This document shows positions 1 through 8,910 of a stretch of DNA of 8,910 nucleotides, piece by piece. Source of the stretch: a virus (lineage: Duplodnaviria; Heunggongvirae; Uroviricota; Caudoviricetes); the IMG/VR virus record IMGVR_UViG_2526164621_000016; one strand, written 5' to 3'. The notes beneath the pieces were generated by a model. That model saw nothing but the letters and a program-made list of their open reading frames with translations. It was not told the origin of the DNA and made no database searches. Numbering within the stretch: the first letter of the stretch is position 1; each line of letters starts with the position of its first letter. The translations under genes and the position numbers were made by a program.

Positions 1-63
1 CTCATCGTTGCGATCGACCTGCGCCTGCACCATTGCTGCCGCCAGTTCTTCCAGTTCCGGCAT
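1..63 (-). CDS. hypothetical protein, first ~21 codons only (gene runs off the left edge)
   Basis: Minus-strand ATG at 63..61 preceded by AGGTGA about 9 nt upstream; frame stays open to position 1 (MPELEELAAAMVQAQVDRNDE...). Starts 28 nt after the stop of the 92..292 ORF. Too short to assign a function. Confidence 0.25.
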   Translation of the reverse strand, partial: MPELEELAAAMVQAQVDRNDE

Positions 64-91
64 CGACAGTTTCACCTGCTGATTATCGGCA

Positions 92-292
92 TCACCCCAC
101 GCCATACGTCCCGTACAATGACAGATTTCGCAGCATGACCACCGGAGAAAGGCGGCCCAGTGAGTCGGGACCAGCATTCCAGATACGACCGTTCCATTCA
201 AACGTGAACGGCTTCGCCTCCTGTTCTGTGCGCCACGCTTCAATTTCCTGACGTCTGGCCTCTCTGGCCGCTTCCAGCATTTCTGGTGTCAC
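92..292 (-). CDS. hypothetical small protein; the same frame stays protein-like upstream to about 418 with no canonical start codon
   Basis: Six-frame ORF of 66 aa (GTG start at 292). The frame is open and compositionally protein-like from 418 (…QQIWQELQSGKWGEIAPFTVTPEMLEAAREARRQEIEAWRTEQEAKPFTFEWNGRIWNAG…). A stop sits immediately upstream at 419..421, next to a 7-nt homopolymer (410..416). No family recognised. Confidence 0.35.
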   Translation of the reverse strand: MTPEMLEAAREARRQEIEAWRTEQEAKPFTFEWNGRIWNAGPDSLGRLSPVVMLRNLSLYGTYGVG

Positions 293-486
293 AGTGAATG
301 GGGCTATCTCACCCCATTTGCCACTTTGCAGTTCCTGCCAGATTTGCTGACCCGTCGGTGCGACATCATCAGCGGTGGCTGTGTAGGGGACTGCCTGGTC
401 CCTGTCGTCAAAAAAACGTCACAGTCTACTGCGCCACTTTCGGTATAACGGAGATTAATGATTTTTTAATTTCCACGGTGCATTCC

Positions 487-840
487 TCACGATGTGCGAA
501 TAAAAAGCCCGGGCATTGCGCCAGAGACATGAGCATCCGGCACCCCGGACAGGGCGCAATATGACCCCGGTAATGAATGCTCTGAACATCCCGTAATGAA
601 AAATTGTGGGGATGCTATATACGTTCCGGTGGGAGTACCGGGCACTGAAATCCCCACCGGTCCCAGTCGTGAGCCTCTGTATGACTGCCCCCTGACAAGT
701 CTGATGACTTTATCACCGTCAGCTTCTCCCTGGTACGCAGCAATAATCAGCCCGCCAATGTCAGGGTCTCCCCATCTGTTGCGGACAGAGCTCGCCACGA
801 TTCTGTAAATAATATCTTCTGTGGTTATATTTATTTTCAC
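487..840 (-). CDS. hypothetical protein (117 aa)
   Basis: ORF whose GTG start (840..838) overlaps the TGA stop of the upstream tail-fibre-like gene (GTGA). The N-terminal half looks protein-like and the C-terminal half is compositionally odd. No family recognised; it could be a decayed fragment. Confidence 0.3.
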   Translation of the reverse strand: MKINITTEDIIYRIVASSVRNRWGDPDIGGLIIAAYQGEADGDKVIRLVRGQSYRGSRLGPVGISVPGTPTGTYIASPQFFITGCSEHSLPGSYCALSGVPDAHVSGAMPGLFIRTS

Positions 841-1754
841 CCAGTCAGTCTGGATATGGGCCAGTAGCAGTAGCGGGTGTGATAAATGGGGCCGTTAATG
901 CCGTAAAAAGTAAGGGATTTGGCTCTGTACCGCGGTTCTGTTGTCTCAGGGCGTGCATCAGTCCACCGGATGCTGAGCACCCCTTCAAAACCCGTGTGTC
1001 GGGGTATGATGATGCCGTAGGGGCCAGCAACGGAATATTCACCTGGCAGCGCATTCCTTACCCAGGCCAGGAAATCACTCTTAGTGTCAAAACGGATAAC
1101 ATCTTCAGGCAGAAAAGCACACCCAAAGCCGAATGCGCCGGGTATCGCCAGACGGCCTTTTGTCCGGTCGTAAATGTCGCTCTGTGCTTCCATCGTGGCC
1201 GCACTTTTCAGCCCCAGATTATCCCGGGACTTCTGTTGTGCCTTTTCGCCTGCTGCTGCGGTTTCAGACAGATGGTTAGCCGTTTTCAGAGTGCCGGTCA
1301 GCGCAGCATCAATGTCATTTTTGGCCTGCTCTGCTGCGCGGGCATAACCTGCGGCAGCCGCCACATCCTGCGCCGTCTGCTGTGCGTTTCCGGCTGCGGC
1401 CCCGGCGCTCTGCTGCGCCTGCGCCACCATTTCCTCAAGGCGTTTGACGACATCCGGTTTCAGGTCGCCCTCATCAGGAGCAATCAGAAAGTCATTCAGC
1501 GTGCCGGGCTTTGAGTCCTCATATACAGCAATGTCGCCAACGTTGTACTCGTTGCGCCAGTCCTGTTTCAGATACACACCATATTTTCCAGTCCGCGCAT
1601 GGAAACAGTATTCACCATCGTTTCCTGTCATCACATCAGCAACAGTGTTCATCACCACTTCCGGGGTGTTTACCCGGGATTTCAGAATAATATGGTATCC
1701 GGACATGGGGATACCTGCGCCATCAGTCAGCGCACCTGATATCACTACAGACAT
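837..1754 (-). CDS. tail-fibre-like protein with lambda Stf / Mu S-type N-terminal domain (305 aa)
   Basis: N-terminus MSVVISGALTDGAGIPMSGYHIILKS…VYEDSKPGTLNDFL matches, from memory, the conserved N-terminal domain of lambda side tail fibre Stf (MAVKISGVLKDGTGKP…VYEDSQPGTLNDFL). It is followed by an Ala/Gln-rich segment. The start overlaps the end of the upstream assembly gene. Confidence 0.6.
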   Translation of the reverse strand: MSVVISGALTDGAGIPMSGYHIILKSRVNTPEVVMNTVADVMTGNDGEYCFHARTGKYGVYLKQDWRNEYNVGDIAVYEDSKPGTLNDFLIAPDEGDLKPDVVKRLEEMVAQAQQSAGAAAGNAQQTAQDVAAAAGYARAAEQAKNDIDAALTGTLKTANHLSETAAAGEKAQQKSRDNLGLKSAATMEAQSDIYDRTKGRLAIPGAFGFGCAFLPEDVIRFDTKSDFLAWVRNALPGEYSVAGPYGIIIPRHTGFEGVLSIRWTDARPETTEPRYRAKSLTFYGINGPIYHTRYCYWPISRLTG

Positions 1755-2322
1755 TGTTTTTTCTCGCGATAAATTAAATCAGGAAGAACCTTCCGGAGAG
1801 CGGGCCATTCAATGGCGTTGTATGAGGATTTATCAGTGATGGTGCTGAAATCCATCGCCTGCAGCGATTTCGCGTAAATACGACAGGCTTTCAGCTTTTC
1901 TTTATCTTCGTCGCTGATTAACCCCAGCAGCAGGTCTTCTTCCCATTCCCCTGTCCGGGCACTGACCTGAGCCAGAAGGGCATCACGCTCATCTTCCGCT
2001 TTGAGTCTGTAGTCAAAGACAAATTCATCATTGCGGTAAAACCAGTAACCCGGCGCGGTAATCCGTCGGTTAGCGGTAATATCCGGAACTTCGATAACGC
2101 TGGCATTGCGTGGCTCGATGCCTGTCACATCCTTACCGACCCACACCACGCGACCATCTCCGGTGTAAGCTATTTTTATTGTGTCGCTGGCGAAATTCTT
2201 CAGCTCTTCATACCAGTTTTTCCGTCTTCTGAAAAAAGCCAGGTGACCGAATATCGTTTTGTCATCTGATATTGTTCTGCTGTTTTCGGATTACCCGCAG
2301 TAATATTTTTTAAATGCAACAT
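1745..2322 (-). pseudogene. tfa: tail fibre assembly protein (P2 gpG / Mu U family), disrupted by a 1-bp frameshift
   Basis: N-terminal frame from ATG 2322..2320 ([35 protein letters not shown]) matches recalled gpG/U N-termini ([22 protein letters not shown]…WSEDGKNWYEE). It switches frame at the homopolymer 2217..2221 into the 1745..2149 ORF (…NWYEELKNF…VIEVPDITANRR…AIEWPA). The start lies 2 nt after the tail-fibre stop. Confidence 0.75.
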
Positions 2323-2810
2323 TGTTAAATACTCGCTACGTTATACCAGGTGCCATTAATCAGTTTTTGCAGTGGTCGGTAATACACACCGTCAACGTTA
2401 TCCGCTGAGTTACGGCCGGTATCCGATATCGCCATCCCTGACAGCCCGTGTCCCGAAGGTGCGCAAAATCTCCACGAAACGGTGTTACTGCCGGGGCTGT
2501 AATACATTTCATGGCCATACCGTACATCCTGTACCCCCTCTGTTCGATATTTATAGCGGGCATCGAAGTTTCCGTAATTTAACGGAATTACCTGTCCGTT
2601 AACAGTGAACACTATGCTGTTATCCGGGTTTCTCTGGCTGAAAAATGCCAGCCTGGATCATCACCAAGCTCTGCAACAACAGGCCTGGATGGATTACCCC
2701 ACAAATAAAACGCTGCATTTTTTCGTGGAGTTGTTGGCGCTGGATAACGTGAATTTTCTGGCAGTTCCGGCCTGAATATTCTTAAAAGCAATAGCCACTC
2801 CATTCTGAAA

Positions 2811-2815
2811 GCGGA
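2811..2815. repeat. 5-bp target-site duplication (GCGGA), left copy, flanking IS2
   Basis: GCGGA lies immediately before the IS2 left end; an identical GCGGA lies at 3886..3890 immediately after the right end. Confidence 0.8.
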
Positions 2816-2906
2816 TAGACTGGCCCCCTGAATCTCCAGACAACCAGTATCACTTATTTAAGTGATAGTCTTAATACTAGTTTTTAGACTAGTCATTGGA
2901 GAACAG

Positions 2907-3335
2907 ATGATTGATGTCTTAGGGCCGGAGAAACGCAGACGGCGTACCACACAGGAAAAGATCGCAATTGTTCAGCAGAGCTTTGAACCGGGGATGACGG
3001 TCTCCCTCGTTGCCCGGCAACATGGTGTAGCAGCCAGCCAGCTATTTCTCTGGCGTAAGCAATACCAGGAAGGAAGTCTTACTGCTGTGGCCGCCGCAGT
3101 CGTCACACTGATGATACGGATGTGCTTCTCCGTATACACCATGTTATCGGAGAGCTGCCCACGTATGGTTATCGTCGGGTATGGGCGCTGCTTCGCAGAC
3201 AGGCAGAACTTGATGGTATGCCTGCGATCAATGCCAAACGTGTTTACCGGCTCATGCGCCAGAATGCGCTGTTGCTTGAGCGAAAACCTGCTGTACCGCC
3301 ATCGAAACGGGCACATACAGGCAGAGTGGCCGTGA
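2907..3335 (+). CDS. insC: IS2 InsC (OrfA) with aberrant C-terminus caused by the internal deletion
   Basis: ATG at 2907. The first ~62 residues match recalled IS2 InsC; after the deletion junction (about 3089..3097) the frame reads out-of-frame insD sequence until a stop. Confidence 0.6.
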
Positions 3336-3874
3336 AAGAAAGCAATCAGCGATGGTGCTCTGACGGGTTCGAGTTCTGCTGTGATAACGGAGAGAGACTG
3401 CGTGTCACGTTCGCGCTGGACTGCTGTGATCGTGAGGTACTGCACTGGGCGGTGACTACCGGCGGCTTCAACAGTGAAACAGTACAGGACGTCATGCTGG
3501 GAGCGGTGGAACGCCGCTTCGGCAACGATCTTCCGTCGTCTCCAGTGGAGTGGCTGACGGATAATGGTTCATGCTACCGGGCTAATGAAACACGCCAGTT
3601 CGCCCGGATGTTGGGACTTGAACCGAAGAACACGGCGGTGCGGAGTCCGGAGAGTAACGGAATAGCAGAGAGCTTCGTGAAAACGATAAAGCGTGACTAC
3701 ATCAGTATCATGCCCAAACCAGACGGGTTAACGGCAGCAAAGAACCTTGCAGAGGCGTTCGAGCATTATAACGAATGGCATCCGCATAGTGCGCTGGGTT
3801 ATCGCTCGCCACGGGAATATCTGCGGCAGCGGGCTTGTAATGGGTTAAGTGATAACAGATGTCTGGAAATATAG
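3122..3874 (+). CDS. insD: IS2 InsD (OrfB) transposase catalytic part, missing its N-terminus and the orfA-orfB frameshift window
   Basis: 250-aa [45 protein letters not shown]…[29 protein letters not shown] matches recalled InsD from about residue 50 onward. The frame is open back to the deletion junction (…SRHTDDTDV…). Confidence 0.75.
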
Positions 3875-3885
3875 GGGCAAATCCA

Positions 3886-3890
3886 GCGGA
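3886..3890. repeat. 5-bp target-site duplication (GCGGA), right copy, flanking IS2
   Basis: Identical to 2811..2815. Confidence 0.8.
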
Positions 3891-4771
3891 ATACACGCTG
3901 ACTATTAGCATAAACATCCAGAATACCGTCTCCATTCTGTTTAAATCCGGTGTCATTATCACCAAGAACAATTGAATTCCCCCCCAGGGCGTTCTGAACG
4001 CCGATACCCAGCGCACCATTGACCTGCGAACCACCGCCAACAGACACTTTATGCGACATGGATATTTCACCCGTCCGCAAATTAATGGTGAACGGGCGCA
4101 GGGGACCAATATCGCCATTTTCCCCCTGACCTTCACTGGTGGGAATAAGGTGCAGGCACTCTTCCGAACGACGAAAAATCAGGCCAAAAGCTTCGTTGAA
4201 AATCCTCAGCGCATTAACACCACGGATTTTCAGCTCTCCGGTTATTTTATCGCCTTCCCGATGAACATAGCGTTGATCTGACTGCTCTTTACTGTAAACC
4301 TGAAGATTATCCCGTGCCGTCCCTTTATTCTGAAGGTCTGACAGATTGTTCTTCTGCCGCAGGAATATCCTTTTCGGATCCTCAAGAAGATTTACCCAGC
4401 CCGCACTGTCGGAGCCTTCAGGATCGGTCAGGTTATCGTCCGTGGTATTCAGCCAGACCGCTGTTGTTGCGACTCCGGCGAGAATGGCTCCTTTTGCATA
4501 TCCACCAATGGCCCCCGCAAAACCGGCATTATACGTGTACAAACCGCCAGCCTGGGCGAACCGTATTGCTGCGGTAATATCGTACATCAGACCGTTAAAA
4601 TCCTTGCCGTGTGGCGGTATACCTCCCGCTGAGACCGCTGTCATGGTCACCGGAGGAAAACCTGAATCATACGCAGCATTACCGCTCTCTCTGGTCTGCT
4701 GTGTCGCCTTGTCCGGGATACGGTTTTTATCTCCGGTACTCGCAAAGGGGACCGCCAGCTGGCGGGGTTTA

Positions 4772-5377
4772 TCACTGGCCTTCATTACGGGACTCCTTTA
4801 AAACTACTGAAACATAAACACCCGGCGGGGATGGCAGTGCACCCGACGACTGGATAATCGCCAGTTCTGCCAACGAGAGCGCGGACTCAAAGACGTAACT
4901 CATCCTCAGCCCGCCATTATTCAGAACATAAGCCCGGCGTTTTTTTCCGAACATAAATCTCAGCATCAGGTTAATATCCGGAACGGAACAGTCAGTAATG
5001 TTCGACATGGCTTTCATCAGTATCAGCCGCCGGTATACAGCATCAGACAGGTCAACAGTCCGGGTATCCGATTTTCCGTTGTAAAACGGTGCCTGATTAA
5101 ACGGACAGGGATCATCCATTACCGGGGTGTCCATCCTGGACTCGCTGAAGCCCAGGTAATTAAAATCGTCCTTTACCGTCAGCCAGCGACTGACACCCAC
5201 AATCTTTCCCCAGACATCAAGACCATACTTTTCTGCGGTATCGATGTTCCAGATAAGACCATAAAAATCACTGATAAAACTGTCGGGGGAAAGCGCTGCG
5301 TTAAAGCTGTTAATGAGGGCATTGAGTCGGGGGCTGGCAGCATACTGCGCAAGCACAGTGGCAGCCACATTCTGCAC
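4772..5377 (-). CDS. phage tail/baseplate protein in the gpI-like position (201 aa)
   Basis: Intact ORF with GTG start at 5377 and AGGAGG 6-8 nt upstream. It lies between the J-like gene and the tail fibre, and its stop overlaps the tail-fibre start by 14 nt, so it is operon-coupled. Assignment is by synteny; no motif was recognised with certainty. Confidence 0.5.
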
Positions 5378-5378
5378 G

Positions 5379-6075
5379 TTATGCCTCCTGGAGTTTCACA
5401 CTGATATCCGACACATCCAGAACCGGAATCTCATCTATCCCGAAAGTGACAGCCGTTGTCCATGACGAACCATCACGGCTCACAGTAAGGCCCAGAATAT
5501 CAATATGTTCCGGATCGGTTTTGTAAATGCCGGCATAGTAGCGCCCGGCAGAGACAACAGAGGCAACTCTTGCCCGCAGACCACCATCTGTACCATTAAA
5601 TGCGTCCAGCACGGATTGCTGTACCTGTCGGGTAATATCTGAAGGCAGGTAGTCACTTTTTTTCAGCGTCACACTGACATGCAGACTGACGGGTTTGAGT
5701 GTCTGCCAGCTGATCACGTATTCAGGATACGGCGGATCGTACTCCTTATCTGCAACAGTGAACGTTGTGTTGCCATTCATATCAATACCCGGCGGAGCCT
5801 TACGCCAGATGGCCGCCGCGATATCTGCCGGGCTGCCGCCGTACACGCCAACATAAAGCGAACCGGGTGTTAATGGATACTGACTCCGGCTTTTTGTTCT
5901 GTTTTTTCGGATTATGGGTGACGTAAACATCCACCACGTTTTCTACCGTGGAGAGTATTTCACCCCGGATGGCTTCCAGAATATTCCGGGCATTACGGGC
6001 AACTGAATTACGTCGGCGGTTTTCAAAGTCCGCACGGGTTTCCTCATCGCTGCCCGGCACACCGGCACGGGCGTT
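5379..6075 (-). pseudogene. baseplate J/gp47-like protein, 5'-truncated by IS600 and carrying a +1 frameshift
   Basis: Two overlapping minus-strand ORFs (5800..6060 and 5379..5930) in different frames. The upstream frame runs open straight into the IS600 left end, so the N-terminus is missing. The frame switch maps to the homopolymer runs at 5891..5907. Family assignment is by position upstream of the I-like and tail-fibre genes. Confidence 0.5.
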
Positions 6076-6139
6076 TGAGGTAGCCTGAGTTTAACGGACA
6101 CTCCTTCCTGAAATAGAATGGCATCAGAAGGAGCTAATA

Positions 6140-6442
6140 ATGAGCAGAAAAACCCAACGTTACTCTAAAGAGTTCAAAGCCGAAGCTGTCAGAACGGTTC
6201 TTGAAAATCAACTTTCGATCAGTGAAGGCGCTTCCCGATTATCTCTTCCTGAAGGCACTTTAGGACAATGGGTTACCGCCGCCAGAAAAGGGCTCGGTAC
6301 TCCTGGTTCCCGCACGGTGGCTGAACTGGAATCTGAAATTCTGCAACTGCGTAAGGCGTTAAATGAAGCTCGCCTTGAGCGAGATATATTAAAAAAAGCA
6401 ACAGCGTATTTTGCACAGGAGTCGCTGAAAAATACGCGTTAA
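6140..6442 (+). CDS. IS600 OrfA (transposase N-terminal DNA-binding protein, 100 aa)
   Basis: ATG 6140 with AAGGAG 7-12 nt upstream; helix-turn-helix-like N-terminus and leucine-zipper-like C-terminus typical of IS3-family OrfA. Confidence 0.85.
   Translation: MSRKTQRYSKEFKAEAVRTVLENQLSISEGASRLSLPEGTLGQWVTAARKGLGTPGSRTVAELESEILQLRKALNEARLERDILKKATAYFAQESLKNTR
6391..6397 (+). other. candidate programmed -1 ribosomal frameshift slippery heptamer (A AAA AAA followed by G) between IS600 orfA and orfB
   Basis: A7 run positioned so that orfA-frame codons are AAA AAA. A -1 shift enters the orfB frame (codon starts congruent to 1 mod 3, same as the ORF at 6478). This is the standard IS3-family OrfAB mechanism. 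Confidence 0.6.
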
Positions 6443-6477
6443 TCGAACAATGGCGACAACAATTTCCCATTGAAGCG

Positions 6478-7295
6478 ATGTGTCAGGTATTTGGTGTATC
6501 CAGGAGCGGTTATTACAACTGGGTACAGCATGAACCCTCAGACAGAAAACAAAGTGATGAGCGGCTAAAACTGGAGATTAAGGTGGCACATATCCGCACT
6601 CGCGAAACATATGGAACCCGGCGGCTCCAGACGGAGCTGGCAGAGAATGGCATCATCGTTGGTCGTGACCGACTGGCACGTCTTCGTAAGAGCTAAGGCT
6701 ACGCTGTAAGCAGAAACGCAAGTTCAGAGCGACTACGAACCCGAACCACAATCTGCCAGTTGCGCCAAATCTGCTGAACCAGACGTTCGCTCCTACAGCA
6801 CCAAATCAGGTCTGGGTGGCGGACCTGACGTATGTTGCCACACAGGAAGGATGGTTGTACCTCGCTGGCATCAAAGATGTTTATACGTGCGAAATTGTCG
6901 GCTACGCCATGGGAGAGCGCATGACAAAAGAGCTGACAGGTAAAGCCCTGTTTATGGCGCTCAGGAGCCAGCGCCCACCTGCCGGGCTAATCCACCACTC
7001 TGATCGAGGTTCACAGTACTGCGCATACGATTACCGGGTCATACAGGAGCAGTTTGGTCTGAAAACATCAATGTCGCGTAAAGGTAACTGTTACGACAAC
7101 GCTCCGATGGAAAGCTTCTGGGGAACGCTGAAAAATGAGAGCCTGAGCCACTATCGTTTTAATAACCGGGATGAAGCCATCTCAGTAATACGGGAATACA
7201 TTGAGATTTTCTACAATCGTCAGCGTCGTCACTCTCGTCTGGGGAATATCTCCCCGGCAGCCTTCAGGGAAAAACATCATCAGATGGCTGCTTAA
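6478..7295 (+). pseudogene. IS600 OrfB (DDE transposase catalytic domain), split by a 1-bp frameshift near 6690
   Basis: ORFs 6478..6696 and 6816..7295 lie in different frames. Inserting one G after 6690 (CGTAAG-AGCTAAGG) would give the continuous sequence …RLRKELRLRCKQKRKF…VWVADLTYVATQEGWLY…HSDRGSQY…, with DDE-type motifs in the second part. Confidence 0.8.
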
Positions 7296-7338
7296 AAAAA
7301 GAACAAATGGTAGTGTCCGCTATTGCCAGTACACCTCA

Positions 7339-8435
7339 TTTTACAGCCCCGTCCGGGCTGTATGTTTTCACCAGCTTATCCAGTGATCGTTTTGAAAATG
7401 GCTGCATTGGATCACGTGGCTGCAAAAATACATAATCCCTGTTGCACTCAGGAACTGAATCACGCCAGGCTTTCTGCTCGTCGATAATCCGCCGGATCTC
7501 AGGCGTTATCGGCAGGCGGAAAGCCTTTTGTGTTTTCATAGCCCCTCGCATGCCGATAACCCCTTCCGGATAAACAATTTCACCAGCCTCCTCGTAAACG
7601 TAGTCCCAGCGCAGGTTATGGACATTAATCGGACGAACACCAGTGATGATCATGAAGCGAACAGCATTCTTCTGGTGTACAGAGGTGCAGGCAGCAACAT
7701 TGAGCCAGAGTCGGGCGATTGATTCAATATCGGTAAAAAGCCGTGTGGGGGTAGGTTTCTGTACGCGGGAGGAAACATAATCATCTGGCAGACTGGCGGC
7801 AACATTGCGGCCGTTGCAAAGAGTAGGTGCGCAGAACTTCCAGAACCGACGGAGCTCGGCAAACAACTCCAGGGCGTTATTGTTCGAGCGAGTGGCGATC
7901 CACTCGTCCAGCACTTCCACCAGCCGATTGTATGTTACGTCGCTGAACACCTCACGCTCGCCGAACGTTACTTTAATCCGGTCGATACGCACCCCGTAGG
8001 TTGTGAAACTGTCCGGGCTCAGCTTCTGCCGGGCTACTTTGGCTTTGGGTCATCCCGGTACATTTCCAGCGCTGCATGTACGGACTCTGCCCGCAGTCCA
8101 CCGTCAGCCATACCTAGTGCTTTTTCGCGCGCCAGCTGGATAACGAGCTCCGGCCACTCGCCGAGCTTTTTACCTTTGAGGCCCATCTTTTTTGGAAACT
8201 CGGCGTAAAATGTAACCTTACCGGCTTTGCTGAAATCGATACGGAGATAGTTCTCTTTTTCGTATTTGGAACAGCGAGCCACGCCGGAAGCAGCGAGGAT
8301 GATTTTGGCGGCAGCAACACAGATTTTCATGTGTGCGCTGGTATAGGGGGGTTTACAGGCGTCCCATTTTTCAGATGCGGCTAAAACATCGTCATTATTG
8401 GGGCTATCCGGATTATGTGTTACAGTGCGCGGCAT
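7339..8435 (-). pseudogene. int: tyrosine recombinase / phage integrase, frameshifted near 8037..8045 and 3'-truncated by IS600
   Basis: N-terminal ORF (8034..8441) has an arm-binding-type region (…KVTFYAEFPKKMGLKGKKLGEWPELVIQLAREKA…). The second ORF (7336..7992), in another frame, continues upstream as …VARQKLSPDSFTTYGVRIDRIK… and carries the start of the catalytic domain (…FMIITGVRPINVHNLRWDYV…KTQKAFRLPIT…). Its stop codon lies inside the IS600 terminus, so the catalytic H-x-x-R…Y region is missing. The start codon is uncertain (ATG 8435 or 8330). Confidence 0.75.
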
Positions 8436-8570
8436 TCTCAATCCTTATCTGCGTAGGCGCAGAAAACAAGCTCACACATACAAGTCTTTTCTACGGGACA
8501 AAATGCAATGTGTTGCGGTTTTGTGTTGCTGGACTGAGTTTATCAAGGTTAAATACACTGGATCAACATA

Positions 8571-8640: not shown

Positions 8641-8910
<270 letters not shown>

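Follow-up and report, generated by a model that had tools for sequence, protein, structure and literature searches.

A side-tail-fibre gene of a phiP27-type host-recognition module, very probably inactivated by a four-nucleotide deletion in a Shigella flexneri prophage

Results

Organization of the locus

The window, i.e., the whole 8,910-nt stretch of tailed-phage DNA that we analysed, carries a series of tail genes on its minus strand that is interrupted by two insertion sequences. A preliminary description had drawn attention to a 305-aa open reading frame (ORF) as a second tail fibre gene with an N-terminal anchor like that of lambda Stf, encoded on the same strand immediately after a fibre gene and its assembly gene, and all of this holds: the ORF listing of the window places the 305-aa ORF at exactly 837-1754 on the minus strand, and the first fibre gene and the Caudo_TAP assembly gene lie upstream on that strand. 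Also borne out by the ORF coordinates is the GTGA overlap between its stop codon and a 117-aa ORF at 487-840. We read the features of the locus as follows:

1-476, minus strand: DUF4376-domain gene, putative cognate fibre chaperone; runs off the start of the window and carries four 1-nt deletions (~468, 417, 132, and 110-113)
487-849, minus strand: side-tail-fibre gene, 3' portion after the split (intact-protein residues 303-422), placed by PHROG 2636, protein alignment, and tblastn
837-1754, minus strand: 5' portion of the same gene (305-aa ORF) with the anchor (aa 1-132), the stalk, and the first subdomain of the distal module
843-851, minus strand: frameshift site, with GACTGACTGG in the window versus GACTGACTGACTGG or GACTGACTGGCTGG in intact relatives; one 4-nt unit is missing
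1745-2322, minus strand: tail fibre assembly gene (Caudo_TAP) of the first fibre, 181 aa in relatives; 1-nt deletions at 2222 and 1801
2325-2813, minus strand: 3' part of the first tail fibre gene, downstream of IS2, placed by PHROG and comparison with relatives
2814-3886, plus strand: IS2 copy with an internal deletion of ~250 bp, inserted in the first fibre gene
3887-4785, minus strand: 5' part of the first tail fibre gene, placed by ORF and PHROG
~6076-7330: IS600, with orfA at 6140-6442 and orfB in two pieces (6478-6696 and 6816-7295)

The N-terminus of the 305-aa ORF is a member of Pfam family PF08400 ("Prophage tail fibre N-terminal"), which it matches over residues 1-132 with E=3.2e-70 and 234.8 bits against a gathering score of 26.6 bits, profile positions 1-132 of 134 being aligned. 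Residues 1-110 are 47% identical to lambda Stf (tblastn against phage genomes, E=6e-22), and residues 1-92 match the collar domain of Ur-lambda Stf (gpStfN, PDB 9E7M; phmmer, E=7e-16). The Stf-type anchor is therefore real on all three counts, though the ~90 residues originally assigned to it were too few and its extent is rather 1-132. Mu S, which the preliminary description had named beside lambda Stf, was absent from the hits listed. An Ala/Gln-rich segment at approximately aa 100-190 is predicted to form a helical stalk.

Both ORFs match the same tail fibre family, PHROG 2636 (568 profile positions). The 305-aa ORF aligns from position 1 (E=7e-149) and covers the start of the profile (1-136), while the 117-aa ORF matches its end (positions 456-567 of 568, E=7.5e-45), so that the two ORFs represent the two ends of one family. 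No enzymatic, toxin, or effector domain was found in either of them by searches against Pfam, NCBIfam, and PHROG profiles, and NCBIfam gave no match for any of the eight ORFs of the window.

The two ORFs are colinear with one intact fibre gene

A comparison with intact relatives had been proposed beforehand as the way to distinguish simple decay from a genuinely short fibre, and it came out on the side of decay. In a megablast search, ten complete E. coli genomes proved to contain the entire 2.2-kb stretch with 96-98% DNA identity, and at all four loci that we opened the counterpart is a single intact coding sequence annotated as "prophage tail fiber N-terminal domain-containing protein". The encoded proteins are 422 aa long in VL40 and CFSAN029787, 421 aa in O121 201805972, and 470 aa in RMDEC465; the first three of these strains have intact genes of 1266-1269 bp and share 97-98% DNA identity with the window over 2.2 kb. 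When the intact protein is searched against the window with tblastn, residues 1-303 fall on 1754-843 in one frame (97.4% identity) and residues 303-422 on 849-490 in the adjacent frame (99.2% identity). The 305-aa ORF thus corresponds to the stretch 1-303 of the intact 422-aa protein, with one codon inserted and a two-codon tail that is out of frame, and in a protein alignment with nine homologues the two ORFs lie end to end with zero residues lost between them.

According to the multiple DNA alignment, the sole window-specific lesion that changes the frame within the fibre gene is a 4-nt deletion at ~843-851. In the wider context, intact relatives read CCAGACTGACTGACTGGGTG or CCAGACTGACTGGCTGGGTG and the window reads CCAGACTGACTGGGTG, i.e., a short tandem repeat minus one GACT unit, and the exact position of the deletion is ambiguous inside this repeat. 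The ORF finder let the 117-aa ORF begin with the GTG at 840-838, which is an internal codon of the intact gene, Val306 (…SRLTDWVKINI…), and direct reading of the sequence revealed no Shine-Dalgarno motif before it. Had this internal GTG not been at the junction, the last 117 codons would not stand out as an ORF of their own.

One could instead regard the 305-aa protein as a genuine short alternative receptor-binding protein or fibre-anchored effector, with the 117-aa protein as its translationally coupled partner, e.g., a chaperone. GTGA overlaps are indeed a common arrangement for coupled genes, and the split form is widespread in S. flexneri (see below). However, this reading is largely refuted by the colinearity of both ORFs with one intact gene in relatives of 97-98% DNA identity, from which they differ by the 4-nt deletion, and by the nature of the GTG as an internal Val codon lacking a Shine-Dalgarno motif. 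The absence of any enzymatic or effector domain from both ORFs and the destruction of neighbouring prophage genes speak against it as well, and nothing supports the suggestion of a fibre-anchored effector in particular. We therefore consider a coupled pair very unlikely. The locus no longer encodes the one unbroken protein, from anchor to tip, that characterizes PHROG 2636, since this continuity has been lost through the 4-nt deletion, and on the evidence of its sequence we classify it as a pseudogene of this family and not as an intact member.

Programmed frameshifting was considered separately and rejected upon direct reading of the sequence: restoring the frame would take a -1 shift at ACT-GGG-TGA, and this site does not have the X-XXY-YYZ form of a slippery heptamer.

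The deletion is a genuine allele of S. flexneri prophages

The exact 305-aa product is on record once, from one contig of Shigella flexneri K-304 (EGK36133.1), which identifies this strain as the source of the window, and the exact 117-aa product on 311 contigs, almost all of them S. flexneri. We inspected six S. flexneri-type contigs (L009-L014), of which four come from Logan run assemblies and two from metagenomes, one of these a gut metagenome assembly. All six carry the two-unit GACT allele, and in every one of them an ORF precedes the 117-aa ORF with a 4-nt overlap. The same deletion in six independent contigs shows that this is a genuine allele that is widespread in S. flexneri.

The window itself contains eight further small indels that none of the examined S. 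flexneri or E. coli relatives shares. Single nucleotides are missing at 2222, 1801, 468, 417, 132, and 110-113, one is added at 1762, and the insertions at ~1004 (+1) and 990-991 (+2) amount to the one extra codon of the 305-aa ORF; several of these unique indels lie inside T5-T6 or A7 homopolymer runs. As the sequence stands, the tfa gene is spread over three frames and the DUF4376 gene over at least four. These assembly-specific indels could reflect either errors in the K-304 draft sequence or decay particular to the strain, and in the former case, which their location in homopolymers makes conceivable, tfa and the DUF4376 gene would be intact in the real strain.

It would be tempting to extend this explanation to the split of the fibre gene, with an intact gene in the organism and an error in the draft genome, given these eight unique indels, several in T5-T6 or A7 runs, and an exact 305-aa product known from a single contig. 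Yet the 4-nt deletion lies outside any homopolymer and recurs in the six independent contigs from other assemblies and metagenomes, and the 117-aa ORF that results from it is present on 311 contigs, so that a sequencing or assembly error is scarcely credible for this lesion.

The window differs by ~1.5% from other S. flexneri contigs with the same deletion. Because of this divergence between copies that share the lesion, the deletion, instead of being one inherited event, may have been passed between paralogous prophage remnants by gene conversion or may have arisen more than once. Recurrence would also fit a different role of the repeat, i.e., that of a contingency (phase-variation) site at which the second fibre is turned on or off as a 4-nt unit is gained or lost, and alleles with three and with two GACT units do both occur among near-identical sequences. 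Against such a switch, three units are, as a matter of general knowledge, far below the repeat numbers that give appreciable slippage in known contingency loci, two intact relatives have the imperfect repeat GACTGACTGGCTGG, and only two repeat states were observed, with no four-unit allele. With the prophage defective here, switching would also have no phenotype. We thus regard phase variation at this site as extremely improbable, and loss of the gene through a frameshift remains our preferred reading.

A DUF4376 gene follows the second fibre gene

The preliminary description had stated that no recognisable assembly chaperone follows the second fibre. In the narrow sense of a Caudo_TAP (PF02413) gene this is correct, as the sole one in the window lies upstream at 1745-2322, but the statement does not hold once the next gene is considered. 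The stop codon of the fibre gene at 489-487 is followed by GAGGA and, 8 nt after it, by a GTG at 476-474 that is the probable start of a DUF4376-domain gene; RefSeq places the start at an upstream ATG equivalent to approximately position 536 of the window. The window fragment 92-292 reaches 25.1 bits in the Pfam search for DUF4376 (cut-off 25), compared to 60.7 bits for an intact relative. The corresponding proteins of relatives have 188-207 aa, phiP27 L57 is 74% identical to the DUF4376 protein, and in every relative examined the DUF4376 gene adjoins the fibre gene.

Experiments with Alteromonas phage V22 have shown that maturation of the receptor-binding protein depends on the DUF4376 protein gp27 (PMC7289586), and for phages V22 and A5 the listed annotation is "tail fiber chaperone DUF4376" (PMC10579305). 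Since this family thus includes demonstrated fibre chaperones, a recognisable candidate chaperone gene does follow the second fibre. A requirement for DUF4376 proteins in fibre folding or trimerisation has been shown only for Alteromonas phages (PMC7289586, PMC10579305), and by analogy we presume that the gene studied here encodes a chaperone that folds the fibre tip.

The distal module recurs behind other anchors

The C-terminal part of the 305-aa ORF had initially been described as short and unrelated. It is instead the proximal half of a conserved distal module of ~240 aa, which extends from …NHLSEIAA.GE.AQQ.SRDNLGLK… to …GLFIR.. and of which the 117-aa ORF encodes the distal half. In E. 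coli the module also occurs with a P2-type PF12571 anchor in front of it (P0075-P0078; 47-48% identity), and a Salmonella prophage with com and mom genes combines it with yet another shaft (P0082; 42% identity). A DUF4376 gene directly follows it in both contexts that we opened (P0078 and P0082). In these sequences, tip and DUF4376 gene move together whatever the anchor, which is the pattern expected for a fibre tip and its cognate chaperone, and the distal module is presumed to be receptor-binding.

In a Salmonella enterica contig (L015, 1065-2584), the distal module and its DUF4376 gene lie directly upstream of com and mom. The adjacent com and mom genes identify this as the right end of a Mu-like prophage, where Mu itself has its invertible G segment.

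We modelled the fibre with AlphaFold2 from an 11-row alignment, using as query a 414-aa homologue that is 100% identical over the distal module. The model has a mean pLDDT of only 54, with residues ~208-300 and ~320-414 of the 414-aa query at 60-91; these two stretches form beta-rich subdomains of moderate confidence, with a low-confidence linker between them. The frameshift falls within this linker between the distal subdomains, as far as a model of mean pLDDT 54 can place it. A Foldseek search against the PDB gave no match at E<=0.001, and sequence searches of the PDB with the distal module and the DUF4376 protein returned chance-level matches only. The domain search and structure prediction that had been recommended for the C-terminal part thus provided a family, PHROG 2636, and two predicted subdomains, but no structural relative in the PDB at this threshold.

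The surrounding prophage is decayed

The first fibre gene is interrupted by an IS2 copy whose own internal deletion joins the equivalents of 2895 and 3145 in the IS2 of E. coli prophage L001, and its InsC frame diverges after ~63 aa. The baseplate J/gp47 gene is cut at ~6075 by IS600. On the far side of IS600, two minus-strand pieces of a tyrosine integrase (7336-7992 and 8034-8441) lie beside a 4Fe-4S ferredoxin gene that begins at 8650. As IS600 directly joins the tail module to these integrase fragments, the remnant must have been rearranged. With IS2 in the first fibre gene, IS600 in the baseplate J gene, a fragmented integrase, and tfa and the DUF4376 gene frameshifted in this assembly, the prophage is by all appearances of its sequence dead, and in a destroyed tail module nothing selects for the second fibre.

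The first fibre gene has a mosaic composition. Positions 4248-6075 of the window are 98.6% identical to E. coli prophage L004 and positions 1-2813 are ~96.7% identical to L001 and L003, while 3887-4247 matches L004 and L001 weakly (78-80% over ~100 nt). This pattern of identities points to recombination within the fibre shaft.

Tandem fibre genes bring to mind the invertible fibre modules of other phages, and we rejected a switch of the Mu G-segment, P1 C-segment, or e14 P-segment type, in agreement with the preliminary description, which had argued against Mu-type inversion from the common strand of the genes. All fibre genes are on the minus strand, no invertase gene is present in the window (the only recombinase domain, at 7336-8441, is that of the fragmented tyrosine integrase), and none of the just three inverted repeats found, which are 16-19 nt long and at chance level, flanks the fibre genes.

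Discussion

A conserved tandem-fibre module

The protein family, the gene order, and even the truncated product described here are already found in public annotation. The order of first fibre, Tfa, fibre with Stf-type N-terminus, and DUF4376 protein is that of phiP27, where genes L54 (fibre), L55 (Tfa), L56 (Stf-N fibre), and L57 (a DUF4376 protein of 188 aa) occupy the right end of the genome, and it is shared by E. coli prophages L001 and L003-L006. Among these, L001, L003, L004, and L006 are baseplate-type prophages, whereas in L005, as in L007, the module comes after lom and a long Stf in a tail region of lambda-like type, and an ipaH effector gene often comes next. To judge by gene order, carrying a second fibre in tandem is a regular, conserved arrangement that is not peculiar to this locus.

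Many relatives carry an ipaH gene for a type III effector (LRR and NEL E3 ligase) on the opposite strand just past the DUF4376 gene (L001, 9469-11232; L003, 5466-7229; L005, 5613-7364; L007, 5106-6856; and L010-L014). The second fibre and its DUF4376 gene thus mark the cargo end of ipaH-carrying prophages, and the window stops short of the ipaH position.

The closest known counterpart of the gene studied here is phiP27 L56 (490 aa), which has a near-identical anchor and 40% overall identity to the intact relative of the window gene. L56 is intact, with a longer stalk and a diverged distal module, whereas the copy in the window is frameshifted and part of an IS-riddled remnant. The N-terminal collar domain is also homologous to that of lambda Stf, and the dodecameric collar on the Ur-lambda tail is built from Stf residues 1-94 (PMC12617516). 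Lambda likewise offers the closest mechanistic parallel to the lesion itself, because laboratory lambda has lost its side fibres through the same type of event, a frameshift in stf, which is intact in Ur-lambda (PMC12617516). The similarity ends there: the distal module of the window is unrelated to the lambda/T4 gp37-type tip, its chaperone gene is of the DUF4376 type and not Tfa (Caudo_TAP), and the window prophage and several of the relatives examined are of the baseplate (contractile-tail) type.

In Alteromonas phage V22, fibre gene gp26 is directly followed by the DUF4376 gene gp27, and a baseplate protein with DUF2612 belongs to the same module (PMC10579305); Pfam places this domain at 4772-5377 in the window. 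Common to both systems is the DUF4376 domain alone, unlike the fibre proteins, which have no detected similarity. The pairing of a DUF2612 gene with a baseplate gene of J/gp47 type, seen in the window at 4772-5377 and 5379-5930, is likewise found in the V22 host-recognition module (PMC10579305).

A further likeness concerns the collar spike gp40 of Vibrio phage XM1 (PDB 7KJK), which combines an N-terminal Ig-like attachment domain with a long helical stalk. Its N-terminal 193 residues align with residues 1-199 of the 305-aa ORF in a weak match (phmmer against the PDB, E=1e-5), and its C-terminus differs in being a tailspike-like domain. The Ig-like domain of gp40 binds the neck of this contractile-tail phage (PMC10457771), which leads us to speculate that on phiP27-type contractile-tail phages the second fibre may be attached to the neck as well.

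A probable relic of a second fibre gene

Taken together, positions 487-1754 on the minus strand very probably represent one side-tail-fibre gene of a phiP27-type host-recognition module that was inactivated by a frameshift. The intact gene has 421-422 codons in close relatives and 470-490 in more distant ones, and its product would be fixed to the virion as a trimer by the N-terminal Stf-type collar/anchor. This anchor would be followed by a predicted helical stalk, probably a coiled coil, and by a two-subdomain distal module of ~240 aa that is presumed to bind the receptor, with the downstream DUF4376 protein as the presumed chaperone for folding of the tip. In this S. flexneri lineage, loss of one GACT unit from the short tandem repeat would have led to a stop after 305 codons, i.e., between the two distal subdomains, and thereby to the loss of fibre function. 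The second fibre is most likely a non-functional relic here because the prophage appears to be dead. The truncated 305-aa product would keep the anchor, the stalk, and one subdomain, which formally leaves room for a residual or altered role. Highly doubtful, in our opinion, is a more far-reaching version in which either the GACT repeat is a slippage-prone switch that toggles a DUF4376-chaperoned second fibre in phiP27-type or ipaH prophages, or S. flexneri has kept the truncated product for a role outside the virion.

The biological weight of the lesion as such is small, as it adds one more frameshifted gene to a decayed Shigella prophage. It does call for caution in the interpretation of similar loci, where a short fibre gene and a small ORF joined by a GTGA overlap can turn out to be one gene whose break falls at an internal GTG, and DUF4376 genes should be counted as likely fibre chaperones when judging whether a fibre has a partner. 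The module is better studied in its intact relatives, i.e., phiP27 or prophages of enteroinvasive E. coli. In its intact form, with Stf-type anchor, two-subdomain tip, and DUF4376 protein, it recurs behind three different anchors and may therefore be of interest for the engineering of receptor-binding proteins.
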